IMG/VR virus record: IMGVR_UViG_3300032257_000021
Location: 1 to 48,978 of that record
Source: a virus
Lineage: Duplodnaviria > Caudoviricetes
DNA: 48,978 bases
Direction: 5' to 3' (one strand)
In this document: piece by piece, positions 3,376 through 42,380 of the stretch
Layout of the letters: each line of letters opens with the position of its first letter
Position numbering within the stretch: position 1 is the first letter of the stretch
The notes under the pieces: model-generated
Told to the model about the DNA's origin: nothing
Database searches by the model: none
What the model saw: only the letters and a program-made list of their open reading frames with translations
Position numbers and translations under genes: made by a program

Positions 3376-5250
3376 TTAAGCTAACGTTGCCGTCCCTCCC
3401 ATAAACACCCAATTACCATTCATGAATTTCAGGTATGCAGAATCACCAACATCATCAAACGTCAATGTAGAACCATTGTATAAGTTGGTAGGTGTTAATG
3501 TTCCAGCACCACCATCGACAATCATGACAATGTGCTTTTCTTGAAGCTCTATGCCATCAGCAAGGGTAAGTGCATCAGCGCCAGTAGTCGTTATTAATGT
3601 ATTAGGGTATTTAATAGAGACTGCCCCAGCACCTGAGATACTTTCAGTGCTCTCATCTGTGAGATTAACGTTGTTCTTCCATGACCTGATATCAGGTGTT
3701 GTACTTTGTGTGAAGGACATTCCATCTAAGCTGCTGTCGCTACTATTACCCTCCGCAACCACCAATAATTCGGGTGAACCAGCACCATATCGGTACGAAT
3801 AAAGAAAGGAGGTGTTACCAGCTTGCAGCCAGTTGTCTTTCATCGTGATTGAGTTACCAGAAACAGCGGCAGATCGAGCGGCTATAAAATAATCCAAAGT
3901 ACCATACACCCTATTACCTGTTACTATGGGGTTTGCTATATTTACAGTGTTATCGGTAACAGAAATGTCTATCATATCAACCCCGTCAGTAGCGGGAGAA
4001 CCAAGCACTCTTAGCGTGTTACCAGTAATACTCATATACTTTGCTACTGGCGTAAGTCTATACGATGCACTTATACAGCTTGTTGCGGTATACCCATTAT
4101 GAATAATGTTTGCACCATGAACTGTGCCATTTGCATACTGTATATCTATCTCTATAATCCCATCATAAGCATCACGTAGAATATTAGGCCCAAAAATTTG
4201 ATTATTTGCTATTTGTGATTTAATAGCTCTGCCTTTATTATTCTCAAAGTAAGCACCGGGACATACTGTAAGTGTGAGATCAGTCTCGGTAACAGAAGCA
4301 CTCGCCTTCAAGCCATCCGCATCAGCTAGTGTAGTGTTCGAGTTTTTAACATTTAATATTCGTAAGTTTGGCCCAGCTACAGTATGCAATGGGGATTGTC
4401 CAGCAGTTGCAAACTCTGATACATTAATACCTGTAGTAACAGCACCAGAGGTGCTTGTTGAGTCAACTTCATCAACAAGGCAATCAAGAAGCACTTTACG
4501 AAATCCACCACGGATAAATATACCAGAGGCACTATAAGTATCTGGTGTGTTATTACGCGTATTAATAACAGACGTTTTGGCTGTTAATGTAATGTCTTTA
4601 CGTGTAGTTGAGGCGTTTTCTATTGATAATGTTCGAGCAGTTTTATTATCACCATCAAAAGTAATGCCATCAATAAATACATTACCTGTAGCCCCTGTGA
4701 ATACAATATGCGTTTGTCGATTAGAACCAGAAGCCTTTATTGTACCTTCGCCAAAAAGTCTAATACCGGAAGCTATAGCTTTACTTATAGCTGTACTACA
4801 TAAATATGTTCCGGCAGGAAGATAGCCTGCCTTGCCAGAGCTTATAACTTTATCAAGCCATAAACCTAAAGCTACTACATCATCCGTTGCTCCATCTCCT
4901 GTAGAACCAAAATCCTTAGCAGACAAACTCTCTTGTAATTTAGCATCAACATCAGACAGTACAGCACCAGTACCTTGCTGTGTAAATGGTACGTTGGTAG
5001 CATCTGGAACCGTTAATGTACTTCCTGCAACAACACTACTACCTGCTATTGTAAGAGCTTGTGTAGCTATATTATTTACATTATTTAAGTCATTACTATT
5101 CATGTCTATGTCAGCAGACATAGCATTAGGACTTGTCCCATCTAAGGAGAGAGTGTTCTCCATAGCTGCTTCTACCAAATCATTGTTAGCATTAACAGCA
5201 GTGTTGGAAGCAAAGCCTGTAAGTATTGAATTAAGCGTCAGTTTAGCCAT
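3376..5250 (-). CDS. Tailspike/tail fibre 3 (beta-helix, pectate-lyase-like)
   Basis: N-terminal anchor ENTLSLDGTSPNxM shared with two paralogs; KDFGSTGDGATDD and YLPAGTY motifs. Confidence 0.82.
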   Translation of the reverse strand: MAKLTLNSILTGFASNTAVNANNDLVEAAMENTLSLDGTSPNAMSADIDMNSNDLNNVNNIATQALTIAGSSVVAGSTLTVPDATNVPFTQQGTGAVLSDVDAKLQESLSAKDFGSTGDGATDDVVALGLWLDKVISSGKAGYLPAGTYLCSTAISKAIASGIRLFGEGTIKASGSNRQTHIVFTGATGNVFIDGITFDGDNKTARTLSIENASTTRKDITLTAKTSVINTRNNTPDTYSASGIFIRGGFRKVLLDCLVDEVDSTSTSGAVTTGINVSEFATAGQSPLHTVAGPNLRILNVKNSNTTLADADGLKASASVTETDLTLTVCPGAYFENNKGRAIKSQIANNQIFGPNILRDAYDGIIEIDIQYANGTVHGANIIHNGYTATSCISASYRLTPVAKYMSITGNTLRVLGSPATDGVDMIDISVTDNTVNIANPIVTGNRVYGTLDYFIAARSAAVSGNSITMKDNWLQAGNTSFLYSYRYGAGSPELLVVAEGNSSDSSLDGMSFTQSTTPDIRSWKNNVNLTDESTESISGAGAVSIKYPNTLITTTGADALTLADGIELQEKHIVMIVDGGAGTLTPTNLYNGSTLTFDDVGDSAYLKFMNGNWVFMGGTATLA

Positions 5251-8801: not shown

Positions 8802-10885
8802 TACTCAGCTTCCTGAGCTGCATTCCATAGTTGTAGAGCCCTATCAGCCTTTCCTTTAACACGAGGGTCTGACAAGAGAAGCTGTAATGCTTCTCCACCG
8901 TCCCCATAGACTTTCTGAAACATCTTCATTGTCTCTAAGGTGAGACTTTTAAATACAGGCTCACTACTTTCTGGTGTAGCTATTTTTTCTTCTTCTGTGA
9001 GGCCATTATTTTCTTCTTGGGGAGCTTGTTCTGCCTTCAAAGGCAGGATACCTGCAAACAGCCCCTCAGCTATACGCTGTCTACTGACAGCCTTCTCATT
9101 GTTAGCTGCTGCAACATTCTCCCAAGCATTCAATAGGTTTGTGACACGATTTCTATAGGTATTATTAAACTCTATCACTGTGCCCTCAAATCTTGCGACA
9201 GCTTCTCTAGGAAGCTTAGCGTCTGCCTTAAGGCTCAGTTGAATATTCCCCTGTTCATCTACAGAGATGTCAGCCATCTCGAATAAAGACAAATTATCAA
9301 TCCCTCTACCAGAAGTAGCCTGCCTTAATATTTGATTCTTGTCAATGAAAGCTCTCATATGAGGGAGAAGTTTTTCACTACCATAGGCATCTAACACTTT
9401 GGATGATGTCTGTAAAAACTCTTTATCAGCCTCCACTTTACTACCACTACTCCCAAACACCTTACTACCAAAGAAGTCAATTGCAGCTTCGTAGGTAAAC
9501 ATGTGGTACTCTGTGGGAGAATTTCTTAGCCCTTTCATAGCCTCTTCTGTTAAACTGATATTACCATTTACATCTTCACCAGTTTGTAGGGCCCCTCGGA
9601 GTTGCTTAAATACATCAGAATATATATTCTTCTGCTCTGCAACACCTTGCTGATCTCCATAGCTCTCTTGCATTTCACTTAAGGTGAAAGAAGCTTTCTT
9701 ATTATCAGGCTTCTTACTATTAATCTCAGTATTAAATTTCGTTACACTGTCATTTCTAGCTTTGTCTAAACCAAACTCAGCACCAATACTTGCTCCCACC
9801 TGTTGCCCAAGGGCTTGTGTAGTGAGTCCGGGAGCAGCTTGTCCTGCCCTCTTTAATATAGAAAGGGCAGCTGCTGTCTCGGGACGCTTCGCCATTAGTC
9901 TAATATACGCTTGGTCATCAAAGTTCTGAATTATTTGTGTATTAAGTTCATTCTTTGTCTTACCTAATAGCGTATCCCTAGTGATGGATACATAATTCTT
10001 AAGAGCAGTTACATACTCTCCTGTCTTTTCTTTAGAAACATTAGACAGGTTGTTCTGTAATACTATAGCATCAATACTACTCTGAGCATTAGCCTCTAAA
10101 CTATTTAAACTGTTTAGTATTTTTTCTCTTTCAGCGGCTGGGACATTAGCAATACTGCCATATGTCTTCATTACTTGACTTACTTGTTGATCTATAGGAG
10201 CTACCAGATTTCTATTCATAGCTACAGGAAGCAGCTGATTAGCTTTGTGGGTGTCTATAACACCAGCAGTTTTAATCTTGTCTAATATACGCTGTTCACC
10301 AACAGCCTTTTGATATTTAGCTTCGGCAAACAAATCTCTAGGGTCTACATAGAATTTACGCATATCAGCTTCTAAGGCTTTTTGCTGAGCAACAGCCAGA
10401 GCTTGTTCACTCTTCACTGTACTTTCAAGAGAAGATACAAAGGCACTAGCACTGCCAGCACTACTCTTCTTAAATATATTTCCTATCTCTGTTCGCAAAT
10501 GAGGATAGGCAGCAAGAGACTCTTTAACTTTAGCATTGACACGAGTGAGTGCTGAGGAGGCTGATAAGCCTGCATCCTTAGCTTTATCAATTCTTCGCAC
10601 TTCCTTAGCAATTCTATTCAAACTCTTCTCATCATTGAGATTAGCACCAGCTAGGAGCTGAGTTTTAGCATCGTCAAAGGCGGCATTCTCTACCTTATCA
10701 CTGTCATACTGACTCTTAATCTTATCTATATTACTTTCAATACCAGCAGTAACAGAGCCCTTATGTAGCTCAAATCCTATATCACCTGCTGTTGTAATAG
10801 TGTCTGCTAACGAAGTATCTACTCTAGGCCCAGAGGGGCCAGCTGTAAATCCTACATCCCCTACATCTTTACTAAACTCAGCCAT
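8801..10885 (-). CDS. Internal virion (ejection) protein
   Basis: 694 aa, helical; position after the nozzle module. Confidence 0.6.
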
Positions 10886-13800
10886 TATTGGCTCCTCTGT
10901 AATAAGTCATTAGCACCTGCAATGTCGTCATACAAGCTCTTAACAAAATCTTTAACTTTTTGTTTTTCTTCTGTTGGAATAGAAGGGTCATGATCTATAT
11001 TAATATAGAGCCCTTCTTTAGTTTGATCTGGGTTTTGGAGCATATGGTTTTTCATAAACATTGCTGTGAACTTCTCAAAATCTGTATGCCGTCTAAACTC
11101 TTCCTTAGCCATCATTGCAACTTGCATTCCATATGCAGGATTACCAGCAAATAAATTCCTAATTAGGTTGCCTTGTATCTGAGCAGCTTCTAATTCATTA
11201 GGATGCTCATACCAAATCTTATAGAATGTACGAGCAACATCTTTAGCGTCTTTCTTTATCTGCTTCCTGTCAGCAACACTCTGCTCTACTTTCTCCCAAT
11301 GGCGTGTCTCAGCTTGTGTAGGAACACCCACTAAAGCTTTAGCTAACAGCTCTGTAGCTGTAGCATCACTGATAGGCTTCCCTTGCTTAGTCACTGTCTG
11401 TAACTTACCTATACGGTTTTCTAAACCCTTAGACATATTGTATTGAGCAACTTTAGAGAACTGCCCGAAGTATCTACCCATCTCCTGAATACTCTTAAGC
11501 ACGAGTTCTACACTATCGTCATCAGGATTCTGGGCCCACATGTGACGAATAGACGTAGCGGCTGCGGCTATATTAGGGCCTAAGCTGCTAGAAGCACCCG
11601 CTAATATCTCCATAGCAGAGGAGTCGCCTGTTATGAAAGCACTAGCAAAGTCATGCATAAATCCAACTCTAGCTAACGGAGACATGTCCTTACTCCAAGC
11701 AAGCTTAGTAGTTCCTACATCACTACCACCAACTAAATCTAAAGATGTATTAAGCATAGTTTGGAACAAGCCCCCTTTAAGGGCTTGGTACAAAGGCTCA
11801 CTCAAATTAATACCAGAATCTTCTAGTGCACTGTCTACTAAGGCATCGAGCCCATATACACCAGCAGCTCCATACATAGTATACAAACCAAGAGCGTATC
11901 GTCCTCGAACACCATTGAGAGCTTTAGTACCACCTGCTGCTGTAGGCATAATGTTTAGTAGAGCTTTGTTCTGTATAGACCAGAACTGTGTCATAGCAGC
12001 GAAAGCCCCTCTCTGATAGTCCATCCTTCCAGATTTAGTCATATCAAAGCCATATACTTTACTGTCAGCTGCTATTCTATCTAGCACCCCTTGACTACTA
12101 TTCCAACGAATCTTTGGATTGTTCTGTGTGTGTAAGTGGCGAGCAAAGCTCCAGCTCACCATCTGATTGAATATTTCTCCAGCATCAAAACCTGCTGCTT
12201 TCATTACAGCGACAGGACTCTTCATGGCTGTAAGTACATTATCAGCTATATACCCACCTCTAGTTTTAGCAGCAGATCTACTTAAACCAAAGTTTAATTC
12301 ATTGATATATACATTACTGTCAATTGCGTAAGCCTTACCTGTCTTACGGAATTGATTGAACACTTCCATCCATTCTTTTTCTGAATAGCCAAAGCTTTTA
12401 GCTACAGGGAGAATCATAGCCATAGCTGCTTTATTCTCATGTCCCATCATTGTAGCAGAGAGAAGCGTAGCATCCCTAGCAGCCTTACTTAAAGCTAACG
12501 GACTAACTCCCACCATATGATACATGCTCTGCCCCTGAAGGAAGAGCTGCCTTCCCGGATTAAGAGCTAAGGACATTGTAAACATACTACCTGTCAACAT
12601 TCTTCCGGGAGATGTATTAGCCAAGCCTTTGAGGAACACTTCAGCAGAGGCTTCTGACATAAACTGTACACCAGCCTTAGCAATAGAAGCATCTATGTTT
12701 AACATAGTATTTTTCCATATTCTATCTATATTAGTTTCAATACCTCTGAAACCTTCTATATAATTATGGAAAGAATTAGCTCTTAATAAGTCTGGATTCT
12801 CTACAGCCTTGCCTGCTTTAGCAAGCTCATGTCCTATATACCTACCTTCGTTATCAAAGAACTGCGGCCATGTCTTTCTCAGTCTAGCAGAATTAACATC
12901 TAATAATTTGTTATGTGTCACAGAAGTAGAAATGGCGTTGCTTACACGCTCAATAGATTGGATAGGATCAGCTATTCTGCCTTTGCTCCCATCCATACGT
13001 TTAAGATGCTCGCCACGTTTATTGAACCAATACCCTACATTAGAATTCAATAGCTTGTTATGTTGAGCAAGCTGTTGTCCAGAAGAGGATATATTCCTAT
13101 CTTCTCTAAAGCTAAATCTTTTATTAGCTTCTGCTGCAAGTGAGGGTAGCAAATCAATTTTCTCAGCGTTGGACAGCCCTTGTAATTCGTCTTCTATATA
13201 AGAAGCTTTAGCTCTTTCCACCATAGCTTTAGCTTCCACTCTAGAGGAAGCTGTACCAAAGGTACGCTTATGATTGGAAACATCTTTCCCGTCTACACGA
13301 GCTGTTGTGAGCTCATCTATATAAAAAGGTTCTACATTAAGTTTATGTACATAGCCATCTCGTCTTTGTAATACATGAAGAGGCAATTCTGTTATAGCAT
13401 TTGCTTTAACAAATGCGTAATTAAACACACCCTTGCCATCATCAAACTTACTCAACACTTTAACTAATGACTCACCTCTGGTGTATCTGTGAGCAATCTC
13501 TTTCTCAGAGAGTGTTGTAGCAGTGCCCGTGAGAGGATCATATACTTCTTTAATATCATCAACAAGTTTTGTAGCAGCATCTCTATCTATAGGGATGCCA
13601 GCATTTTCAATAACAACGCCATCTCCTCTATCAATACGCAGCCCTTTGTTACCAGCTGCTATGAGGGTGTCCCTTACTTCTCTATTTTTCAAATCATATA
13701 CAACATCCCAGAAAGCTCTATTAGACAAATAGCCAATAGTCTCATCTTCTGAAAAGCCTAAATTTCTAAGCTGTTCTGGATTGTAGGCTATGCCAAGTTG

Positions 13801-15756
13801 ATCTCCTTCAGAGATAAGGTTGGTAACTTTCTGTTTACTAGCAAATGGAAGAGTCTGGTAAGGCTTAGTTAGCGAGAACAGGTCATGCTTAAACACAAAC
13901 TTCTTCTCATTTCCTACTATAAATCCACCATGAATGTCCATAGCATATTTAGATTCAGGAGATCTAAAGAAGCCTAGAAAGCCCCCTGATGGATCTATAT
14001 GAGCTGGATCTAAAGGCATCAAGTCATTATAAGGAAGAGCTTTCTCACCTTTCACTTGCAAGAAGAATTCTCCTCCTGCACCAGCTTTAATTTTCTCTGC
14101 AAATCGCTCAGACATCTTAGAAAGCTGAGCAGCCTCTGTAAGGAGCTGCTCTTTCTTAGCCCCCTTCTCTAGCTTAGCTTCTGCACGAAGCTTCACAATA
14201 TCCTTCTTAGCTATCTTAATCTCACGCTTGATAGCTGAGACATCTACACTCTTAGCAAAATGAGCACCATTAGCAAACTCTTCAAGTTCATCTGTAACAG
14301 TGTTTCTAACCATGACAGTGAAATCTGAAGATTTGAAGTTTCTATTATTCCCTTTGAGGAATAATTGCATAGCCTTTTGAGCCTCTACTCTAGAGAAGAA
14401 ACCTTGTGTATTATCTTTTCCTAATACAGCTTGGTACTCTATAAAGCCTGTCTCTCCTTTTCTACCCATTCTAAATTTATCAGGATGCCATACGAATACA
14501 CCTTCTGCACCATTAAGCGCAGTGGTCATTGTATTAATACGAGCCTCAAAGTCTTTGTCTGTATAGATGAAAGTATTTTCAGGAATCTGCATTATAGCTT
14601 CCTTACTCACTTGAATCCCTTCCATAGCCTCCTTAACTTTTGGAGGGACACCTGCAAAGGGAGCTCCATCAATAGGCTGAGGCATTGCATTCATAGCAGC
14701 CCCTTCAGGAGTTGTACCCATACTGGTAGCTACGTCAGCATTTTTAATACTCTCTGCATGTAAGATGCTACCAAGCTCTGGATCTGCTGCTGTTATATTA
14801 CCAAGAGCTCCGTGAGGCGTAGCTCTTTCAGCTACAGACTCTACACCATTGAAATATTTCCCTACTATCTTCCCTAAAGATTTAGCAGGCAGGACACCAA
14901 ACAATTCAACAGAACCTAATATATTATCTATGATGCGTGTAGCATCACTGTCTGGGCCACCGGGCTGTAGGTAATGCTTCAGAGATTCCAAAGCAAATGT
15001 CTTAGCCATATCGTTCTGCTGCCCTGTGGACAGATCAGAGATAACACCAGAGTTTCTAACAATACTTTCTACAACACGCTCAATTTCTTTCTCTTGCTGT
15101 TCTACAGGAGTATTCTTTATATGTGTTGCTAATGCTTGATAAGCATCACCAGCCATTACATAATAACGTTCATCTAAAATCTCTTTTGTAACAGAGCCTA
15201 GTGTAGCAGGAGTCTGTAGTGGTAGGAGTAAATCTGCAAAGTCCTTAGTAATATCCCAAGCAGCTGTAGGATTTTTAGATTCCTCTGTAGAGGCTAATGT
15301 ATTAAGTGTATCAATAAGACGAGTACGCTCTCCTATAGTTTTAAGTACACTAAAAGCACGCTCTTCATTGTCCTTACTAGGGGTGCGTAAAGCACTGCGT
15401 TGTGCTGTCTTTTCTAATGCGGTGAGCTTTACACTAGGATCTTCTTGTGTAAGATTTATATACCCATCTAAGATTTCTTGAGTAGTACCACCAGACTTTA
15501 CAGCTTCTCGCTTCATGTAGTCCATGTAGCTATCAGCATTGTCCTTAGCTATCTTTCCCTTTAAGTCTGCTATATCTATGTCAGCAGATTCAGAGTTAGC
15601 TGCTTCTTTGTAGCGTTCAAAGGTTTCTATAAGAGGCTTATCCTCAGCTAAAGCTGCATATACAGCAGTCCTATTAGCTTCAGCAGGTTCCACTCGTTGC
15701 TTTACAGGTATAGACAAATCATCTACAGGAGGTGATAATTGATTTAATTCTTCCAC
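10885..15756 (-). CDS. Large internal virion (ejection) protein
   Basis: 1623 aa with GTG start; podoviral core-protein position. Confidence 0.7.
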   Translation of the reverse strand: MEELNQLSPPVDDLSIPVKQRVEPAEANRTAVYAALAEDKPLIETFERYKEAANSESADIDIADLKGKIAKDNADSYMDYMKREAVKSGGTTQEILDGYINLTQEDPSVKLTALEKTAQRSALRTPSKDNEERAFSVLKTIGERTRLIDTLNTLASTEESKNPTAAWDITKDFADLLLPLQTPATLGSVTKEILDERYYVMAGDAYQALATHIKNTPVEQQEKEIERVVESIVRNSGVISDLSTGQQNDMAKTFALESLKHYLQPGGPDSDATRIIDNILGSVELFGVLPAKSLGKIVGKYFNGVESVAERATPHGALGNITAADPELGSILHAESIKNADVATSMGTTPEGAAMNAMPQPIDGAPFAGVPPKVKEAMEGIQVSKEAIMQIPENTFIYTDKDFEARINTMTTALNGAEGVFVWHPDKFRMGRKGETGFIEYQAVLGKDNTQGFFSRVEAQKAMQLFLKGNNRNFKSSDFTVMVRNTVTDELEEFANGAHFAKSVDVSAIKREIKIAKKDIVKLRAEAKLEKGAKKEQLLTEAAQLSKMSERFAEKIKAGAGGEFFLQVKGEKALPYNDLMPLDPAHIDPSGGFLGFFRSPESKYAMDIHGGFIVGNEKKFVFKHDLFSLTKPYQTLPFASKQKVTNLISEGDQLGIAYNPEQLRNLGFSEDETIGYLSNRAFWDVVYDLKNREVRDTLIAAGNKGLRIDRGDGVVIENAGIPIDRDAATKLVDDIKEVYDPLTGTATTLSEKEIAHRYTRGESLVKVLSKFDDGKGVFNYAFVKANAITELPLHVLQRRDGYVHKLNVEPFYIDELTTARVDGKDVSNHKRTFGTASSRVEAKAMVERAKASYIEDELQGLSNAEKIDLLPSLAAEANKRFSFREDRNISSSGQQLAQHNKLLNSNVGYWFNKRGEHLKRMDGSKGRIADPIQSIERVSNAISTSVTHNKLLDVNSARLRKTWPQFFDNEGRYIGHELAKAGKAVENPDLLRANSFHNYIEGFRGIETNIDRIWKNTMLNIDASIAKAGVQFMSEASAEVFLKGLANTSPGRMLTGSMFTMSLALNPGRQLFLQGQSMYHMVGVSPLALSKAARDATLLSATMMGHENKAAMAMILPVAKSFGYSEKEWMEVFNQFRKTGKAYAIDSNVYINELNFGLSRSAAKTRGGYIADNVLTAMKSPVAVMKAAGFDAGEIFNQMVSWSFARHLHTQNNPKIRWNSSQGVLDRIAADSKVYGFDMTKSGRMDYQRGAFAAMTQFWSIQNKALLNIMPTAAGGTKALNGVRGRYALGLYTMYGAAGVYGLDALVDSALEDSGINLSEPLYQALKGGLFQTMLNTSLDLVGGSDVGTTKLAWSKDMSPLARVGFMHDFASAFITGDSSAMEILAGASSSLGPNIAAAATSIRHMWAQNPDDDSVELVLKSIQEMGRYFGQFSKVAQYNMSKGLENRIGKLQTVTKQGKPISDATATELLAKALVGVPTQAETRHWEKVEQSVADRKQIKKDAKDVARTFYKIWYEHPNELEAAQIQGNLIRNLFAGNPAYGMQVAMMAKEEFRRHTDFEKFTAMFMKNHMLQNPDQTKEGLYINIDHDPSIPTEEKQKVKDFVKSLYDDIAGANDLLQRSQ

Positions 15757-27341: not shown

Positions 27342-29417
27342 CTACCACTGTGCCGCATAGACAGGAACAAATCCTAAACTAGCTCCATCTTTATCAAATA
27401 TTTCTACAGCGTTAGCTGTAGCACCAGAAGGCGTATTTGTATTTGCAGCTGCGTTAGGAGCTTGAATTAACTCAGGTGTTTTCACATAAGGTCTAGCACC
27501 ATATTGAGTGTGCCTACCATTAATTAGGTATACACCATCCACATGTATCGACCCATCTACTGTATCCGCAGGATAATAACCAAACTCTACATTGAACTTG
27601 GTCATAGATGTAGTTAGATTTACATGATGAATTAATGTAAACCATTTTCCATCGTCACCAAATACAGGCTGGTCATTCGTTGCCTCATCTGTAGTCTGAT
27701 TATAGGAGATTAAGTAGTTCTCACCTGTTGTGGACGTACCTAAGTCTGACTCTATTCTACATCGAATGGGTGCTGCGTTTGAGCTATAAGGTCTACATAC
27801 CACTGCCACTGTCACATACTCAAAGTTTTTTGATAGCGTCTGTAGTACAGATCCTGATAATGGCATGTAACTAGCCACATCCTGTCCAAACCCATATAAG
27901 TTATTTGCAACAGGATTAGTAACTTCTATCCTTACTGCATTATTATATGTGAGTGTATTAGAGCTCCCTGTCCGTTGGAGAATACCTAATGTAGCTGTAG
28001 CCTCATCTTTCCTAGCAACCCAACTATGTGCGAAACTAGCTGCATCACTTATATTACTACTACCACCTGTCCAGAGTGCAAAATTACTATTTACAAGTAA
28101 ACTCTCTTGCGTTTGTGGGCCACCTATACTACCTGCCTCTAAATGGTTAGCAAATGTTGATACACCTAAACTAGTTCCAGCTTCACTACCTACTTGCCTA
28201 CTTCCATCACTGTCTATAACCTGTACCATGTTAGGTACATTTTCAAGATCACGGAAGTTTATAGAATGATTCTCAGTAACAAACATAACAGGGTTTGTTG
28301 TTGTACCTGAGCCTTCAAAGTACGTGTTTCCTACTGTATTCCATTTATAGTCCATATAGACACCCCATTCTGAAGGGGTAGTACCACTTGGATCATAGCC
28401 AGCTAGGAATCCTTGTACACCTAGAATATCTATATTATTAGAAGAGGAGTCCTTAAATGTAATACCTTGGACACAGTTCCAAGATCTGATCGTTCCAATA
28501 TTACTTACACGCATACCATCGTTAGAGTTTCCAGAAGTATAAAAACCCCTGAACATATAAAACCCAACTAAGTTATCTAAATGGAGATAGTAAAGACCTT
28601 GAGTAGCAGTATCACTAAGCCTCAGATCTATTCCAGATATATTCTCTGTCACTAAATTTGCAATAGTGTCAGAGGTTCCTCTGCAATAGACATTCTTTAT
28701 TGTCTTCTCATTAACACCATGCTCACAAAAGACCCCTCTAGCATTATTAGGTGCTGAGGTCATATCAATCATGAAGTTGGCAAAAGTTGTTCTATCAGTA
28801 AGCTCAGTGGATGCTGTAGCTTGCCCTACTCTACACATACCTGTATCTGATAAGGTTGCATCATATATCAGTACAGGCCAAGGACTATCTTGACTTAATT
28901 CTGCTTCATCTGATGCCAGCTCCCCTATAATAGACACTCTAAAACAATCTAAAAGGGATGTTATTAAATACTTCCCATACGGGACAAAGATAGCTTTGTT
29001 AGAAGCTTTAGCCTCTATAATAGCATTTTGGAATGCTGTGGTATCATCAGTAGTTCCATCACCCACAGCTCCAAAGTCTACCACTACATTAATATATTCT
29101 TTCAGCTTTTCTGCTACATTAGCTAGCGTGGCTCCTGTACCAGTTTGGGTGAAAGGGACATTAGTGGCATCAGGTACTGAAAGCGTAGATCCAGCTACAA
29201 TAGACGTACCAGCAATTGTTAAAGCCTGAGTGCCTACACTGTTGACATTCAGCAAGTCATTGCTGTCCATGTCAATATCAGCTGCCATTGTATTGGGACT
29301 CGTACCGTCCCTAGACAATGTATTCTCAAATGCTGTAGCAGCGTCTGTGAAGTTTTGATTTATCAGGTCGTTAGATAAATACCCACTACTAGCTGTTACT
29401 GGTGTATACTTAGCGAT
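27342..29417 (-). CDS. Tailspike 2 (beta-helix), non-canonical ATC start
   Basis: The frame extends 33 codons upstream of the ORF-track start to ATC-GCT-AAG-TAT-ACA-CCA, matching paralog MAKYTP; DFGAVGDGTTDDT motif. Confidence 0.8.
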   Translation of the reverse strand: MAKYTPVTASSGYLSNDLINQNFTDAATAFENTLSRDGTSPNTMAADIDMDSNDLLNVNSVGTQALTIAGTSIVAGSTLSVPDATNVPFTQTGTGATLANVAEKLKEYINVVVDFGAVGDGTTDDTTAFQNAIIEAKASNKAIFVPYGKYLITSLLDCFRVSIIGELASDEAELSQDSPWPVLIYDATLSDTGMCRVGQATASTELTDRTTFANFMIDMTSAPNNARGVFCEHGVNEKTIKNVYCRGTSDTIANLVTENISGIDLRLSDTATQGLYYLHLDNLVGFYMFRGFYTSGNSNDGMRVSNIGTIRSWNCVQGITFKDSSSNNIDILGVQGFLAGYDPSGTTPSEWGVYMDYKWNTVGNTYFEGSGTTTNPVMFVTENHSINFRDLENVPNMVQVIDSDGSRQVGSEAGTSLGVSTFANHLEAGSIGGPQTQESLLVNSNFALWTGGSSNISDAASFAHSWVARKDEATATLGILQRTGSSNTLTYNNAVRIEVTNPVANNLYGFGQDVASYMPLSGSVLQTLSKNFEYVTVAVVCRPYSSNAAPIRCRIESDLGTSTTGENYLISYNQTTDEATNDQPVFGDDGKWFTLIHHVNLTTSMTKFNVEFGYYPADTVDGSIHVDGVYLINGRHTQYGARPYVKTPELIQAPNAAANTNTPSGATANAVEIFDKDGASLGFVPVYAAQW

Positions 29418-29444
29418 TGTAATTACTCACTCTCATTTGTTATT

Positions 29445-31349
29445 TTATGCCCCATTATCTGACCTACTTACTTCTTGCCACGAAGCTCCTCTACGCATGA
29501 GCATTAAGCTATCTTCGGTATTATCTAATGTGAAATCTCCCGAAATATCTAGGTTGCCTGTACCGTCTTTCACTACGACAGATCGCGCACTATTGGCAGC
29601 CACCAATATAATGGTCGAGAAATCTTCTTTGCCACTGATTGTATCTAAATCATCGCTCGAAGCGTCCGACTCCGTATCAACAATAATAGTTTGAGAGCTA
29701 CCTGTTATATCTATAGCTCCGGTAGCAATAGTATATTCATACGCAAATAAACACTGACCAGTCCTATCTAGCCATAAGTTTGTCGTGATACCCTGTGATG
29801 TATATGCAGCATTTTCAACAACGCCTTGGGATAATGCGCCACCTGTTTCAGCGTTAATATTACTCAATACACAATTATTAGTTGTTGACGTAGTGGCAGC
29901 GTTTAACTGGATGCCAGTACGATAGTTCCCTGCTGCATAACTCCAGAAATTATCAACCTCAACATAAGCACAGCTCTCAATACCCATACCAGAGTAAGTT
30001 GTATTTGGTATTCCGTTCAATGATATATTGGTTAGCTTTGTATAATCACTCAACTCTAACCAAATCGGAGTATTGTTATTAGATGGTGTCGTGTAGTCTA
30101 ATGTCCCGTCAGCAATAAAATCATTAGCGGAACTGTGTGGAAAATATGTAAATCTTAATTGATGCCCTTTGCAGTCAATGGCTTTATTACCATTCACAGT
30201 ACAATACCCACCCTTATAGGTAGCACTCGTTCCTATAAATAAGAATACTGCTGCATCTGTAACTTCCGTTAGATTACATCCTTCAGCAACATTATAAGAA
30301 ACATTATGATAATAACCAGAAGTAGCTGAGGATTCTGCTTTAATATTATAAGGATTCTTTTCCCAAGATTTTACATAGTTACCAACAACATTACAGGATT
30401 CGCTGTAGCCATTAATATAAATAGCGTGTCTACCCTGACCTGCTGAGTTTGTATTATCAAATCTATTATATAAAATATTTTGATTGTTGCCACTGGATGT
30501 TATGCCATATCCATACCCAGTGTTTAGCCCTTCAATATTTGTAAACAAGCAATACCTAACATCTAACCCATCCGAATGGTTATTAGCGATACCGACATTC
30601 CATTGGTCAAACCAAACATTGCTTACCTTGCAGCGCGTGTCCTGAGTAGTGGGATAGCTCATGGCAAATGCAGTAGCACCTGAATTCGTATTAACCCCGA
30701 TAGCTCCGTTACTTGATGGCGAGGTTTCAGACGAAGTAGCTGCCCCAAGCATTTTTAATGACTTAATATTAACGTCTGTATGTGTAGTTAATACCGCTAT
30801 ACCAAACTGTAATGTATCATCGGTTGTTTTTAGGATTGTAGACCAGCCCGAACCTTCAATAGTTTGGTAAGAGCTTCCTGTTTTTAATGGTGAAGATATT
30901 AAGTATGTTCCTGTAGGAAGAAATATCCTATATGCCCCGCTGTCTATAGCAGCTTGAATGGCTGCTGTATCGTCTGTAACACCATCACCAACAGCACCAA
31001 AGTCCTTTACAGAGACAGCTTCCTGTAGTTTAGCTTCCACTGTGGTGGCAACAGACCCTGTACCACCTTGGTCATAATCTATCTCGGAGGCATCTGAAGC
31101 TGTAAGGGCTGTAGTGGTTACTATTGTACCACCAATCTTCAGTGTTGTAGCATTAACTATCCCACCATTAAGCAGATCATTACTATTTAAGTCAATGTCT
31201 GATCCCATTGAATTAGGCGTTGAGCCATCTAAGCTCAACGTATTATCAAAGGCAGCTTCTATTCTGTCACTATTCGTATTAATAGTGGCTTGAGCAGATG
31301 TTGTATTAGCTAGATTTGTGACATCATCTAGGGGCGTATATTTAGCCAT
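29445..31349 (-). CDS. Tailspike 1 (beta-helix, pectate-lyase-like)
   Basis: Shared anchor domain; VSVKDFGAVGDGVTDDTAAIQAAI and FLPTGTY motifs. Confidence 0.85.
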   Translation of the reverse strand: MAKYTPLDDVTNLANTTSAQATINTNSDRIEAAFDNTLSLDGSTPNSMGSDIDLNSNDLLNGGIVNATTLKIGGTIVTTTALTASDASEIDYDQGGTGSVATTVEAKLQEAVSVKDFGAVGDGVTDDTAAIQAAIDSGAYRIFLPTGTYLISSPLKTGSSYQTIEGSGWSTILKTTDDTLQFGIAVLTTHTDVNIKSLKMLGAATSSETSPSSNGAIGVNTNSGATAFAMSYPTTQDTRCKVSNVWFDQWNVGIANNHSDGLDVRYCLFTNIEGLNTGYGYGITSSGNNQNILYNRFDNTNSAGQGRHAIYINGYSESCNVVGNYVKSWEKNPYNIKAESSATSGYYHNVSYNVAEGCNLTEVTDAAVFLFIGTSATYKGGYCTVNGNKAIDCKGHQLRFTYFPHSSANDFIADGTLDYTTPSNNNTPIWLELSDYTKLTNISLNGIPNTTYSGMGIESCAYVEVDNFWSYAAGNYRTGIQLNAATTSTTNNCVLSNINAETGGALSQGVVENAAYTSQGITTNLWLDRTGQCLFAYEYTIATGAIDITGSSQTIIVDTESDASSDDLDTISGKEDFSTIILVAANSARSVVVKDGTGNLDISGDFTLDNTEDSLMLMRRGASWQEVSRSDNGA

Positions 31350-31861
31350 TAATGCAATCCAAGCCTTTGAGCGTCTTCGTCTGTATCACTGTGAATACCA
31401 GCCTCTATTTTCTTCCTATGCTCTACTTGGGCTTTAGTGGGTCTTCCTTTGCCTGTCTTCCATTGACCTCCAGCAACCCATTTAGCTGCCGCTGTTCCTT
31501 TAGAGCCTTCCTCTGCTGCCGTTTCAACAAGGCTTTTAATCGCCTTACTTCTGACTTTAACTTCAAGCTCATCTCTCCATTCGTCTATGTAAGCACGTAG
31601 CTGTGTATTCTCACAGATGCGTGTCCATTGCTTCCAGCTGCCAAAAGCAGCCATAGCAAATTCATATTCTCCGTCAATAGGAGCTGTAGACAGCTCTAAA
31701 TAAATCTGATGTAGAGAGGGACATTCTCCTTTGTCCTTCGGGGACAAAGAATAAATAGGAGAATAATTCTTATTCTTAAATTCCCAGAACAGCGAGGCTG
31801 TTCGATATCTGCCCTTACTGTCAAGGAAGGGCATAGACTGCTCTAAATCTGTTCTTAACAT
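31349..31861 (-). CDS. Putative terminase small subunit
   Basis: First gene of the late arm, 170 aa, helical; WRDELEVKVRSKAI. Confidence 0.6.
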   Translation of the reverse strand: MLRTDLEQSMPFLDSKGRYRTASLFWEFKNKNYSPIYSLSPKDKGECPSLHQIYLELSTAPIDGEYEFAMAAFGSWKQWTRICENTQLRAYIDEWRDELEVKVRSKAIKSLVETAAEEGSKGTAAAKWVAGGQWKTGKGRPTKAQVEHRKKIEAGIHSDTDEDAQRLGLH

Positions 31862-32133
31862 AGAAGTCCTTACTAGCTGCCATGCCTACCATTAAGGTAG
31901 GGCAGGGCGGGTGGGAAAACTTAAACAATTTAATTGCTGTCCTCAAGACAGCAGAGATGTTTATTATAATATATGTTTTCTCTTTGGGGAGAAAACATTC
32001 TAAAATAAAATAAGAATGTTTCTTATTTTAATATAGATGTATGTTTATTTATCTGTTCCTCCTCTTGGGGAGAGAGGAACAAAATAATATAATGTTTTAC
32101 GTTAGTAATAACATTATGTCATATTATATCTAT

Positions 32134-32162
32134 ATTATAACATATTTTTCTTCTTTTGTCAA
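32134..32162 (-). promoter_or_regulatory. Sigma70 promoter for the structural arm
   Basis: Minus strand TTGACA-17 bp-TATAAT with an extended -10 TG. Confidence 0.85.
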
Positions 32163-32205
32163 GCACTATCTTCTCTTTCATGTAAAAAATCTCTTAAATA
32201 TTCTG

Positions 32206-32218
32206 TAAGCTATTGATA
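32206..32218 (-). promoter_or_regulatory. IHF consensus site
   Basis: Minus strand TATCAATAGCTTA matches WATCAANNNNTTR. Confidence 0.45.
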
Positions 32219-32315
32219 GTCGAGGATCTATTAATTTCTGTGAGATAAATTTATGTTCTAATGCATATACAGAAGAGAGATTCAAACCCCCGCATACCCC
32301 CTTCTATATATATTC

Positions 32316-32365
32316 TAAATACGAATCATTCTCATCCGCATATCTAAATGAGAATCATTCTTGTT
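32316..32365. promoter_or_regulatory. Two Fur-box-like sites
   Basis: TAAATACGAATCATTCTCAT and TAAATGAGAATCATTCTTG versus the 7-1-7 box TGAKAATNATTMTCA. Confidence 0.6.
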
Positions 32366-32388
32366 TGGTGTAATAAAACATTCAATAC

Positions 32389-32408
32389 TTATCCACAGCT
32401 TATCCACA
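32389..32408 (+). promoter_or_regulatory. Two tandem perfect DnaA boxes
   Basis: TTATCCACA at 32389 and 32400; a 1-mismatch TTATCCGCA at 32448. Confidence 0.75.
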
Positions 32409-32490
32409 GGCAAACAGTCCGCATTATTATATTATAACATTGTTATATTATCCGCAATTTCAGTACATTAGAATGTATTAAACATCGTTG

Positions 32491-32533
32491 AACGTGTTGC
32501 TAAAATGCAACAACGTGTTGTTATAATACAACA
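32491..32533. repeat. Tandem 21-bp repeat of palindrome TGTTG-N8-CAACA
   Basis: AACGTGTTGCTAAAATGCAAC / AACGTGTTGTTATAATACAAC. Confidence 0.7.
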
Positions 32534-32540
32534 TCTATGT

Positions 32541-32556
32541 TGGCATGATATGTGCA
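32541..32556 (+). promoter_or_regulatory. Sigma54 -24/-12-like site
   Basis: TGGCATG-ATAT-GTGCA with GG-N10-GC spacing. Confidence 0.55.
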
Positions 32557-32672
32557 TATCTATTATCGTTCTCTTATATTCTCAATAGGCGGCCTGTAAG
32601 CCGCTCTGAGAGCTTGCATGTCTAGTCCTTGTCTTGGTATTAAAACAAATACTTCTACCTAAATTGAATTGT

Positions 32673-32688
32673 TGGCATGCTTTATGCA
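32673..32688 (+). promoter_or_regulatory. Sigma54 -24/-12-like site
   Basis: TGGCATG-CTTT-ATGCA with GG-N10-GC spacing. Confidence 0.55.
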
Positions 32689-32792
32689 TGCATGAAATGT
32701 GATAGTATGTAGCGGTACAGCTTGCTATATATAGTATAGACATGATAAGTATTATTTATGGCAGGTATAAAAACATTTAATGATAATATCCC

Positions 32793-32820
32793 TTGCATTT
32801 TAATTATAACGTGCTATATT
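32793..32820 (+). promoter_or_regulatory. Early sigma70 promoter overlapping a palindrome variant
   Basis: TTGCAT-16-TATATT with extended TG; close similarity to the promoter at 44564. Confidence 0.6.
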
Positions 32821-32849
32821 TAGTACAGACATTAACGAAGGGGTATGAC

Positions 32850-32969
32850 ATGAGTAAATACAAACATAGAATACAAGATATTATACTAGCCCGCGTTATG
32901 CGCGGGCAAGGCTGGGACAGGGGACGTTGTACCAATCCTCCTTATTTTGCAAGATATATGAATAAATAA
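32850..32969 (+). CDS. First early gene, 39-aa basic peptide (not in ORF track)
   Basis: AAGGGG RBS; MSKYKHRIQDIILARVMRGQGWDRGRC... Confidence 0.5.
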   Translation: MSKYKHRIQDIILARVMRGQGWDRGRCTNPPYFARYMNK

Positions 32970-32972
32970 CCC

Positions 32973-33002
32973 TTGACATTTGAATTTGTAACACGTTACA
33001 AT
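32973..33002 (+). promoter_or_regulatory. Early sigma70 promoter overlapping a palindrome
   Basis: TTGACA-18-TACAAT; TTGTAACACGTTACAA at 32986-33001. Confidence 0.7.
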
Positions 33003-33038
33003 AGACACACATTAATTAAACATTTGGAGTATTACATT

Positions 33039-33656
33039 ATGACTAAGCAAACAAACAACACAGTAAAAACAATTCGCCTTTCTTCTCCTTTATTACGTGT
33101 ATTGCGTGAAGGGGGCAAGGCGCAACAATCTATCCAGTCAACATACACTAACGCATTAGAACTATTGTTAGTTGATAAGGAAAATATAGAATATGATAGT
33201 AATGCCTTTACACAGGCTTTTGATGAGATTAAAACCAAGTACAGTATTGAAAACGGTCAGGATAGTAAAGGCAATACAAAGTATAAGACAAGTGAAGAGG
33301 GTAATGGGCTTGCGTCACAGCTACGAACAAATCTAAGACGGGCGGCTAAACAGGCAGAAGCGGAAACCAGTTTTACAGTTAAACATAGTCCCAAACGTGG
33401 CTCATATGTAGAGCCTGTTGACTGGAAAGAGCCAAAGAAAGAAAGCGAGCTTGTCAAAAAGATGAAGAAATTTGTGGAAACAAAAGATGAGAATCTCGGC
33501 AATGATATTGTAATAGCCGTGCAAATGGCTATACTTGAAAGACTAGAGCTTGAAGAAATGGCCGATGAATTAGATGAAGAGCACAAGGCAGTATGTGAGA
33601 GCATAGGCAAGGCAGAAAGCAACATGAAAGCCAAGCGAGCACAACAAGCAGCATAA
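33039..33656 (+). CDS. Early protein with possible N-terminal ribbon-helix-helix domain
   Basis: GGAG RBS before ATG 33039; KTIRLSSPLLRVLRE...S..ALE resembles the CopG pattern. Confidence 0.6.
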   Translation: MTKQTNNTVKTIRLSSPLLRVLREGGKAQQSIQSTYTNALELLLVDKENIEYDSNAFTQAFDEIKTKYSIENGQDSKGNTKYKTSEEGNGLASQLRTNLRRAAKQAEAETSFTVKHSPKRGSYVEPVDWKEPKKESELVKKMKKFVETKDENLGNDIVIAVQMAILERLELEEMADELDEEHKAVCESIGKAESNMKAKRAQQAA

Positions 33657-33712
33657 TGTAACATGTTATAATGCCCCTTTAATTAGGGGCAAGGGGATAA
33701 ACAGGTGATAGT

Positions 33713-34132
33713 ATGAAAAACTTAAACCAAGCTATTATTGACATAGCACCAAGGTATAATGTCTCAGACAATGCCCCGAATACGTGGGAAGATTTGCAAG
33801 CTGATTATAAAAAACATGGCATTATTACTGTCTTTGCTGGGGCATGTGAAAGGTCAATATACAATAATGTTGATGTAAACCATGCCTTTAGAGCATGGCA
33901 TGATAAGATACATTTAGAGCATGGCTTATCCTTCTCATATGAGGATGAACTAGAGGTAGCACGTATTCATTGTGCTGCACTACCTAAGTATGCCGATGTT
34001 CTATGGGCTGATGTTGCTGGGCAAGTATGGTATTATTATAAATACGGCAAGTATGTAAAAGACCAAGCGGCATTTGTTAATGCCTTTATAACGTGTTATA
34101 ATTACGGAGAATTACCAAGCTATGAAAATTAA
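33713..34132 (+). CDS. Hypothetical protein with NHAFRAWHDxxH putative metal-binding motif
   Basis: His/Asp helix motif followed by a downstream Glu. Confidence 0.65.
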   Translation: MKNLNQAIIDIAPRYNVSDNAPNTWEDLQADYKKHGIITVFAGACERSIYNNVDVNHAFRAWHDKIHLEHGLSFSYEDELEVARIHCAALPKYADVLWADVAGQVWYYYKYGKYVKDQAAFVNAFITCYNYGELPSYEN

Positions 34133-34322
34133 ACAAACAGATTATGAAAAGAGAATGACGGCAGAGCAATGGCTTGCCTTTATAACACAAGTGTATAAAT
34201 ATCCAAGCTGGCTATTTGATAACAAGCTAAGCATGGCTAGTATGATAGTATGTCGGAGCAAACAAGGGGATATGTACATAGTTAAGAAGGGTAATACATT
34301 TATATCGTTGGAGGAATCATGA
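34122..34322 (+). CDS. Hypothetical protein
   Basis: GGAG RBS; coupled. Confidence 0.55.
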   Translation: MKIKQTDYEKRMTAEQWLAFITQVYKYPSWLFDNKLSMASMIVCRSKQGDMYIVKKGNTFISLEES

Positions 34323-34486
34323 ATAAATTATATATATTAGTTGTTATCACATGGCTTATTGTGTTAAGCTCTTTAATATACAATGTATATGACGGTTATA
34401 ACACTGTTATAACAGAGAGACATAATAAATTAAATGACATAAATGTAAAAACAGAAGATGTTAGCCCTAAAAACCGCTATCAATAG
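34319..34486 (+). CDS. Small membrane protein (55 aa, not in ORF track)
   Basis: GGAGG RBS, ATGA overlap, N-terminal TM helix. Confidence 0.55.
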   Translation: MNKLYILVVITWLIVLSSLIYNVYDGYNTVITERHNKLNDINVKTEDVSPKNRYQ

Positions 34487-34496
34487 GAGAAGTAAC

Positions 34497-34781
34497 ATGG
34501 AAACAAAAGTCACATATGTAACGGCTATTGACGCTGTATGGAGTAGGGGTACAAAGTCTTATAGTATAATAGCGCGACTTGTACCAGTTAAACTTGATGA
34601 TGTTATGGTGAGTAATGCTGTATTTGACACTGCTCTGGAGGTACATGTTAACGATTTAGTAATGGTAACAAGAGAAGAAGGTGTTATTCCCAAAATAGTG
34701 AAGGTGGTGAAAAAACGACCTCCTTACCCTGAAATAGAGACAAGGGTAGCTCAGGCATTTCTAGAATTGAGGGAGAAGTAA
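34497..34781 (+). CDS. Stand-alone NAD-dependent DNA ligase OB-fold-like protein
   Basis: PVKLDDVMVSNA and NDLVMVTREEGVIPKIVKVV match LigA OB motifs; AGGAG RBS. Confidence 0.65.
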   Translation: METKVTYVTAIDAVWSRGTKSYSIIARLVPVKLDDVMVSNAVFDTALEVHVNDLVMVTREEGVIPKIVKVVKKRPPYPEIETRVAQAFLELREK

Positions 34782-34965: not shown

Positions 34966-35236
34966 GAAAGTATTTTTTCATTGTCGTTCTAGGGATATGT
35001 GGGACGTAATAGGGTGCATTACAGGTGTTAGAGCTTCATCTTATGATGAAAGGTATGCATGTCGTAACTTCGAGGCTAGCGGGTATGTTGGTTTTTCAGG
35101 GAGAGAGTGGAGCAGAAAGGGTGGGTATGAAGAGATTGATCTAGAGTGGGAGCAGAAAATTCTAGACAACATGACAAAAGAAGAGATAAAAAACTTTAAA
35201 GCTAAATTGAAAGGAGAATACCATGAGAAGCGATAG
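34958..35236 (+). CDS. Hypothetical protein
   Basis: GTG start inferred from overlap. Confidence 0.5.
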   Translation: MSEKVFFHCRSRDMWDVIGCITGVRASSYDERYACRNFEASGYVGFSGREWSRKGGYEEIDLEWEQKILDNMTKEEIKNFKAKLKGEYHEKR

Positions 35237-35594
35237 ACATTTTGAAGAGCAAGAAAAGCCTTTTGTTGTATTCAGTACAACTAGTGGTTATGTACCAAAA
35301 AGCTTTCCTTATGTGTGTAAGTCTGTATTGGGCTGTTTTGACAATGGGCAAGAAGACAGTTTTATAACATGTTATAATGGCTTTGAATGGCTAAGAGATT
35401 ATTTAGCCAGTGATGGTCAGCAGTATTATTTATATGTTGATAGCTTTAGGAATGCTTATTTATTACACATCAATGAAGAAGTGGGGAATAGTGAGCCTGT
35501 AGGCAAGTTTCAAAGGGCAACAGAGCAAGAGGCTAAGAGCATGTCAGCATGGACATATGATAGTAGTGGTGATGCGTATTGGGTGGTGAAATGA
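35223..35594 (+). CDS. Hypothetical protein
   Basis: AGGAG RBS. Confidence 0.65.
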   Translation: MRSDRHFEEQEKPFVVFSTTSGYVPKSFPYVCKSVLGCFDNGQEDSFITCYNGFEWLRDYLASDGQQYYLYVDSFRNAYLLHINEEVGNSEPVGKFQRATEQEAKSMSAWTYDSSGDAYWVVK

Positions 35595-42119: not shown

Positions 42120-42380
42120 ATGAGTGAAGAATTGAAAGCGTGTCCCTTTTGTGGTGGCAATGATATACGTTTTTCATTAAAGACAAGAGGAGTAAGAGAA
42201 ATTAAATACCATGCCACGATGTATTGTAATGATTGTCATTGTTACGGGAAACGAACATTAACACAATCAATTCCATCCTCTAATTATTCTGGCCGAAGGG
42301 CTATTAAGAACGACAAGACAGTACAGGAACTAGCTATAGCTGCATGGAACACAAGAACCCTGCCTGAAGTGGAGGAATAA
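42120..42380 (+). CDS. Lar-family (restriction alleviation-like) zinc-finger protein
   Basis: ELKACPFCGG...CNDC...AIAAWNTR. Confidence 0.75.
   Translation: MSEELKACPFCGGNDIRFSLKTRGVREIKYHATMYCNDCHCYGKRTLTQSIPSSNYSGRRAIKNDKTVQELAIAAWNTRTLPEVEE

Follow-up and report, generated by a model that had tools for sequence, protein, structure and literature searches.

Why would a phage place, in the gene-free stretch between its two gene arms, a row of putative binding sites for host proteins, most of them in pairs? This question is raised by the virus record IMGVR_UViG_3300032257_000021, which we analysed over its whole length of 48,978 nucleotides (hereafter the window, to which all coordinates refer). 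A sequence-only reading had listed sites for IHF, Fur, DnaA and sigma54 polymerase, together with two dyads, within about 500 bp of this stretch, and had proposed that they serve DNA entry, end protection or the sensing of host state rather than an ordinary promoter region. All of the sites it listed were recovered where it had placed them, and the stretch is indeed free of genes, with no ORF of at least 70 aa in +1..+500 as counted from the predicted genome end. We therefore asked where the genome ends, whether the sites exceed chance in the window and in its relatives, and which function fits them best.

Genome organization and the predicted left end

The first 127 bases of the window are repeated at its end, so the sequence represents a complete genome, circularly permuted and 48,851 bp long. 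On its gene layout and terminase, we classify the virus as a Zobellviridae-like podophage. As in members of that family, its genes form two opposed arms, one devoted to replication and the other to structure, and its large terminase is 64% identical to those of cobaviruses and 51-57% identical to those of ICP2, CW02 and PA11. The leftward arm, from 31861, encodes tail spikes, terminase, portal, capsid and tail proteins and a 1623-aa internal virion protein. The rightward arm, from ~32850, encodes CobT/CobS-like proteins, primase, helicase, a split DNA polymerase, nucleases and ribonucleotide reductase. Two genes of the leftward arm matter for what follows:

31349..31861, minus strand: first late gene, encoding a family-conserved 170-aa protein, probably the small terminase subunit given its position ahead of the large subunit in relatives
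10885..15756, minus strand: 1623-aa internal virion (ejection-type) protein (phrog_12003, E 5e-34), context for a T7-like entry route

No close DNA relatives were present in the phage collection searched. None of the 67 ORFs scanned against PHROGs matched an RNA polymerase family, and searches with the first early protein yielded neither a relative among viral contigs nor a Pfam or PHROG family. The types of site described below suggest a gammaproteobacterial host.

Other features of the genome were also recorded. Three pectate-lyase-like tail spikes are encoded at 27342-31349 and 3376-5250, two of them inserted between both terminase genes. Early-arm products include a SAM lyase-like protein (35223-35594), a Lar-like protein (42120-42380) and a stand-alone ligase OB-fold domain (34458-34781). 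A run of hairpins at 31866-32130 separates the late promoter from the first late gene, and a 42-nt piece (32082-32123) is shared with a rarer sequence in the same sequencing run.

Cobavirus genome ends are described as lying between the arms, in a gene-free region, with direct terminal repeats whose G+C-rich 5' part is conserved (PMC6775973). The window shares the opposed arms and gene-free divergent region of these termini, as far as the available part of that description and the records of ICBM1, ICBM2, RIO-1, VpV262 and K4 portray them. We aligned the record ends of ICBM1, ICBM2, RIO-1, VpV262, K4 and O4 to derive a signature, and found in common an A/T-rich element ahead of the cut and paired C-tracts behind it. 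The window carries the corresponding feature:

32233..32302, plus strand: family terminus signature, with a 29-nt element, the predicted cut at 32261/32262 and then paired C-tracts at 32288-32302

Its 29-nt spacing is that of K4 and O4, and its first four bases are those of K4, O4 and RIO-1; the spacing in ICBM1 is off by 2 nt and VpV262 has the signature in part only. Because this signature matches the recorded ends of relatives, we place the left end at ~32262. The cut at 32262 is thus predicted by homology, which agrees with the earlier proposal that the terminus lies in the divergent region. The 29-nt element and the C-tracts together likely form the terminase recognition site. Klyazma (L008:711-792) is an exception, as its annotated 711-bp repeat begins 81 nt from the signature cut; its authors describe this end as ragged. 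The Klyazma repeat starts about where a short K4-type repeat would end, and annotation or packaging mode may differ. Contigs of one run that hold the window DNA read through the predicted end, and contigs cannot show ends. Terminal repeats in relatives measure 74-172 bp, and depending on the length of the window's own repeat its Fur-like and DnaA boxes could occur at both ends. Since the 29-nt signature is conserved across the family, it allows genome ends to be placed in uncultured members.

Putative host-factor sites in the window and its relatives

Relative to the predicted end, the sites of the strip span +55 to +426, and the best early sigma70 promoter follows at +712. The features of the region are as follows:

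32134..32162, minus strand: late-arm sigma70-type promoter, 12/12 consensus with extended -10, in the right-end unique region
32206..32218, minus strand: IHF consensus match, about 50-55 bp outside the predicted left end, in right-end DNA, at chance level
32316..32336, no strand assigned: Fur-like box 1 (+55)
32345..32365, no strand assigned: Fur-like box 2 (+84)
32389..32408, plus strand: two perfect DnaA boxes, head to tail, 2 bp apart (+128, +139)
32421..32480, no strand assigned: A+T-rich stretch with a one-mismatch DnaA box at 32448 (+187)
32495..32533, no strand assigned: two 18-bp dyads (TGTTG-N8-CAACA) 21 bp apart (+234, +255), each with a central -10-like hexamer
32541..32556, plus strand: sigma54 -24/-12 site 1 (+280)
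32673..32688, plus strand: sigma54 -24/-12 site 2 (+412)
32845-32872, plus strand: early sigma70-type promoter, 10/12 (+584), ahead of the first early genes
32973-33002, plus strand: early sigma70-type promoter, 11/12 (+712), ahead of the first early genes

We compared 32200-32700 with 3000 dinucleotide shuffles of itself. Two Fur-like cores and two sigma54 patterns were each reached in 0/3000 shuffles, values that are optimistic for the window alone since both patterns were shaped on its own sites. One more sigma54 pattern occurs elsewhere in the genome; the better Fur-like box has 6 mismatches to the classical 19-bp Fur consensus, a level that 44 strand-matches genome-wide reach. The two perfect DnaA boxes were likewise never reproduced (0/3000), and none occurs elsewhere in 48,350 bases; three boxes at ≤1 mismatch appeared in 3/3000 shuffles and two dyads in 1/3000. 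The DnaA, Fur-like, dyad and sigma54 pairs thus exceed the shuffles, but the IHF match does not. The IHF match at 32206 was reached in 255/3000 shuffles, has 10 further exact matches elsewhere in the genome and falls outside the left end, and we do not count it as evidence. Consensus scans of 32262-32700 for CRP, FNR, LexA, ArgR and ArcA gave no convincing site; an ArgR-like match with two mismatches coincides in part with the first DnaA box.

As an independent test, the same patterns were then scanned in two sets of relatives. Set 1 was built from 55 viral loci retrieved by the signature, minus 5 matches within genes and 6 duplicates, plus 7 cultured phages, giving 51 (MEP401 was also left out); 39 of its 44 viral loci match family proteins, with late genes ahead of the cut. 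Set 2 consisted of metagenome ends, 46 of 120 being kept after 56 duplicates (the window's own sequence included) and 18 ends without the second C-tract were dropped. For set 1 the scan covered +1..+600 (27,422 bases, window excluded) and, before the cut, -600..-30 (28,663 bases).

Inside the end, set 1 held 27 sigma54 sites in 10 phages, against a mean of 0.53 and a maximum of 3 in 100 shuffles, and off-by-one spacing controls gave 0 and 0. Fur-like sites numbered 20 in 5 phages (shuffle mean 0.33) and IHF sites 16 in 15 phages (2.4), with 8 matches to one IHF spacing control against these 16. Before the cut there were 0 sigma54, 1 Fur-like and 1 IHF sites. Set 2 behaved in the same way, with 11 sigma54 sites in 5 ends (shuffle mean 0.33), 14 Fur-like sites in 4 (0.20) and 12 IHF sites in 12 (1.28), next to 2 sigma54 and 3 IHF matches before the cut. 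After reduction for kinship, set 1 retained 7 lineages with sigma54 sites, 4 with Fur-like sites and about 11 with IHF sites; set 2 may hold further kin. Chance matching of the sigma54 sites was rejected on the basis of this clustering in relatives and of the shuffle tests. Meanwhile, DnaA boxes with one mismatch allowed were not enriched in either set (12 vs 9.9 in set 1, where 2 perfect boxes occur; 7 vs 6.0 in set 2), and the dyads only weakly, with 5 and 4 sites after the cut vs 3 and 3 before it. Pattern scans of the terminal regions of relatives, which the sequence-only reading had called for, therefore supported sigma54, Fur-like and IHF sites but not DnaA. DnaA boxes as a family trait were rejected for lack of enrichment in these 97 relatives; they are particular to the window and a few others.

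The arrangement of the sites follows a common order. Fur-like sites are most frequent within 100 bp of the end, IHF matches at +100..+300 and sigma54 sites at +200..+300, the same order that we report for the window. The orientation of the sigma54 sites in set 1 is mixed (12 plus, 15 minus), and VpV262, L156, L172 and L187 carry head-to-head pairs, a layout beyond what productive promoters need. In VpV262 (L140:173-347), six sigma54 sites, among them two head-to-head pairs and all unannotated in its record, lie at +173..+332, past the 138-bp repeat, and K4 has one at +247, past its 74-nt repeat. As these sites lie beyond the terminal repeat, they are single-copy and confined to the left end.

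When five site classes were scored in the 46 set-1 ends of at least 300 nt, 22 carried none, 19 carried one, 1 carried two and 4 carried three. The window carries four, the most of any end scored, and its +40..+600 region has no blastn match of at least 60 nt to that of any relative. Site classes interchange between phages, and their number and orientation vary too. Collectively, the scans identify the window as the richest case of a family-wide trait, a cluster of putative host sites tied to within a few bases of the predicted end and present also in the cultured phages VpV262 and K4.

Some relatives carry further arrays. In L151 and L170, repeated RccR/HexR-type half-sites at +50..+190 stand ahead of four sigma54 sites, and a dyad starts 25 nt before the first of these, an offset as in the window with the opposite orientation. 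In L147, L161 and L191, a different and very A+T-rich array of short repeats (+30..+500) takes the same position, which suggests another host binder.

The Fur-like boxes and the dyads were also compared with bacterial genomes. Relatives mix the window's Fur-like variant with classical Fur boxes. The exact 19-mer of Fur-like box 2 had 15 matches in bacterial genomes, all of them intergenic (15/15) and 10 of them proteobacterial; among the proteobacterial copies, the gene that follows is a TonB receptor in 2 cases, a flavodoxin in 1 and a monooxygenase in 1. Three Photobacterium copies precede a peptidase gene. Dyad 1 had 69 exact matches, 31 of them proteobacterial by title, against 17 for a permuted control with 1 or 2 proteobacterial. 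Of 98 ORFs beside the dyad matches, 44, picked by taxon, were scanned. For both dyads together, 12 of 27 proteobacterial loci lie upstream of genes for porins, TonB receptors, OmpA-type proteins or related outer-membrane proteins, and 0/27 lie upstream of glucose-catabolism genes. Exact dyad copies ahead of outer-membrane genes indicate a host-type regulatory site. Such exact, intergenic dyads ahead of outer-membrane genes were seen, in diverse Proteobacteria, in L338, L348, L355, L357, L359, L384, L389, L397, L402, L412, L423 and L430 (around 901-918 in most).

Among known operators, that of HexR was compared with the dyads. As compared by eye, dyad 2 agrees with the Shewanella zwf site at 17/18 positions but dyad 1 at 14/18, and the core spacing of the dyads is 6 vs 7-8 in the Pseudomonas consensus, in the available portions of PMC2911847 and PMC5489143. 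In addition, the genomic copies of the dyad precede outer-membrane genes and not Entner-Doudoroff genes. PhaR/AniA was ruled out as the owner by its different spacing, as given in the part of PMC12542648 at hand. A role of the dyad as a sigma54-activator site is unsupported for this host range, as the sigma54 pattern follows the dyad in 4/5 Clostridium copies and in 0/16 Proteobacteria. The dyad points to a proteobacterial regulator of outer-membrane genes that is not yet assigned.

A possible docking strip and its alternatives

Our leading reading, which we advance tentatively and with confidence well short of even, is that the sites form a docking strip rather than a promoter, holding the entering end in place until host RNA polymerase takes charge. 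The left end would enter first, as in T7. Abundant host proteins, namely Fur, DnaA, a palindrome-binding regulator and sigma54 polymerase, are candidate binders of the paired sites, and once bound they would anchor the entering DNA in the cytoplasm. Host sigma70 polymerase would then load further in (+584, +712) and pull the remaining genome. In T7, about 850 bp are described as entering without transcription before host polymerase pulls (PMC8954989), and sigma54 holoenzyme is described as binding DNA in an inactive state (PMC4591121). The window phage has parts that correspond to those of T7, with its ejection-type protein, and no RNA polymerase match among the 67 ORFs. Binding would act mechanically, any tight binder being sufficient, and not through gene regulation. 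What is conserved is the place, namely the first 100-450 bp inside the left end and before the early promoters, and not the factor, number or orientation of sites, which suits any tight host binder. Meanwhile, the 22 of 46 ends without any class imply that the strip is dispensable or is served by factors that our patterns do not recognise. Extra anchors may also be unneeded, since in the available text on T7 its ejection protein is described as a probable ratchet for the leader (PMC8954989).

The earlier suggestion that this is not an ordinary promoter region was supported. The mixed-orientation and head-to-head sigma54 layout of relatives is atypical of promoters. Ordinary divergent sigma70 promoters are also present in the region. 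We consider it unlikely, though worth serious attention, that bound regulators repress or tune the leader promoters, so that early transcription and transcription-driven entry follow the iron, carbon, nitrogen or replication state of the host. Fur, HexR-like regulators, DnaA and sigma54 all report on physiology, which counts for such sensing. Dyad 1 shares bases with a promoter-like site (32479-32506), and an extended -10 lies in the middle of dyad 2; this overlap with -10-like elements fits regulation and counts against a docking strip. The exact dyad copies are host regulatory sites ahead of outer-membrane genes, and both sigma54 sites of the window face the early genes. However, relatives carry the sites in both orientations and also as head-to-head pairs, at least 160 bp separate the last site from the best early promoters beyond it, and no lysogeny genes were matched among the 67 ORFs scanned. 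Bound sigma54 polymerase was also no roadblock in E. coli, in the portion of PMC4591121 available.

Quite unlikely, in our judgement, is a shield formed by host proteins bound in a row, which would slow end-loading nucleases at the leading end until the phage has made its anti-defence proteins. Dense sites starting about 45-55 bp from the cut would suit it, as would a left end exposed before early proteins are made and an early arm that encodes SAM lyase-like and Lar-like proteins. RecBCD, however, displaces bound proteins from DNA. The very end is left free, the right end is almost without such sites, and the E. coli Chi octamer is absent from +1..+600 in 51/51 relatives. General end protection, which the sequence-only reading had offered as one function, is weakened because sites are one-ended where ends are recorded.

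A contribution to packaging appears distinctly improbable. The strip follows the terminal repeat in the concatemer, where bound host proteins could supply a pause or a bend, and in T7 a paused polymerase is described as recruiting terminase at the concatemer junction (PMC3276506). The sites of VpV262 and K4 just past the repeat and the peak of IHF matches at +100..+300 are compatible with this. Nevertheless, the sites stand at distances from the cut that differ by hundreds of bases and their factor is not constant, yet the terminus signature is fixed, and ahead of the window's cut there is only one weak rightward promoter (9/12).

We regard as very unlikely a replication origin in which the tandem DnaA boxes, beside the A+T-rich stretch, melt the duplex close to the left end and so admit the phage helicase and primase. 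The two perfect boxes 2 bp apart are followed by 60 A+T-rich bases, GC skew turns at the strip, and tandem perfect DnaA pairs are common in viral contigs, in an estimated 9400 or so stretches. Their spacing in viral contigs (L010-L129) is mostly 2-4 or 11-12 bp (2-4 in 82/120), with more boxes nearby in 22/51. However, the cluster of boxes with an unwinding element exists in the window only, DnaA boxes not being enriched across the 97 relatives, and gene direction and the genome end account for the switch in skew. The phage has a primase, a helicase and a polymerase of its own, and an origin leaves the Fur-like and sigma54 sites unexplained; at tandem-DnaA viral loci, Fur sites were nearby in 0/51 and sigma54 sites in 2/51.

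Least probable of all, and in our view remote, is a decoy or chance account, with the sites soaking up host factors once the genome has replicated, or arising as a side effect of an A+T-rich promoter region or a phage-encoded regulator. In its favour, little non-coding space is available, which would steer any added element into the strip, and the window's IHF match is at chance level. Against it, shuffles that keep composition come nowhere near the observed counts, controls with wrong spacing are empty, and the side before the cut, although just as poor in genes, lacks the sites. Two copies per genome would also make a poor sponge, and the sites match host consensus and host genomes.

Comparison with known phage ends and sigma54 sites

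Among known phage ends, our literature search for DnaA, Fur, sigma54 or IHF sites (titles and abstract starts, mostly outside subscription journals) returned only the DnaA boxes of T5. The available part of the cobavirus description makes no mention of host-factor sites inside the end or of the 29-nt element before the cut (PMC6775973). The sigma54 sites resemble the inactive sites described in the accessible part of PMC4591121, with correct -24/-12 spacing and binding without activation as a normal state. They differ from those in being clustered at a phage end and, in relatives, often head-to-head.

We know of no strip of host sites like that of the window in T7. The likeness to T7 lies elsewhere, in a podophage with ejection-type proteins and a gene-free leader that ends in host sigma70 promoters, as portrayed in the part of PMC8954989 available; the two differ in that the window phage has no match to a phage RNA polymerase among its 67 ORFs.

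T5 offers another parallel. Its injection-stop region (Repeat Region 3) has paired DnaA boxes, and host DnaA has been proposed to hold the DNA there (Davison, 10.1101/866236). The window likewise has gene-free DNA, predicted to enter first, with paired DnaA boxes, through its one pair. A 54-nt piece over its Fur-like boxes also matches T5-like phages at 79-80%, and the core of Fur-like box 2 is present in the T5-like injection-stop region, adjoining the paired DnaA boxes. The differences are considerable. According to the available text on T5, its region sits ~9 kb into the genome, where a 10-kb terminal repeat has its inner edge, and its eight boxes, paired at 3-bp spacing, belong to two 131-bp inverted repeats. 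The strip of our podophage lies in the first 430 bp and has two perfect boxes, 2 bp apart. No inverted repeats of the 131-bp T5 type were present in 30500-34500, none of the 67 ORFs matched a PHROGs family for A1, A2 or dmp, genes that go with two-step injection in T5, whose region needs A1/A2, and the window adds sigma54 sites and dyads. In its working the strip would resemble Davison's tether idea, but it is not T5's element.

We postulate, as a possibility that we judge less likely than not, that lytic phages of many unrelated kinds share a cis-acting docking strip of interchangeable host sites (sigma54, Fur, IHF, DnaA and others) in their first-entering DNA, on which host proteins would serve as mechanical anchors or clamps during entry. 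This bears on the long-open questions of how phage DNA is held and drawn in past the membrane and of what the T5 injection-stop signal binds. If docking is true, that signal would be one special case of such a strip, and Zobellviridae, with their short recorded ends and cultured members, would be the simplest setting in which to study it.
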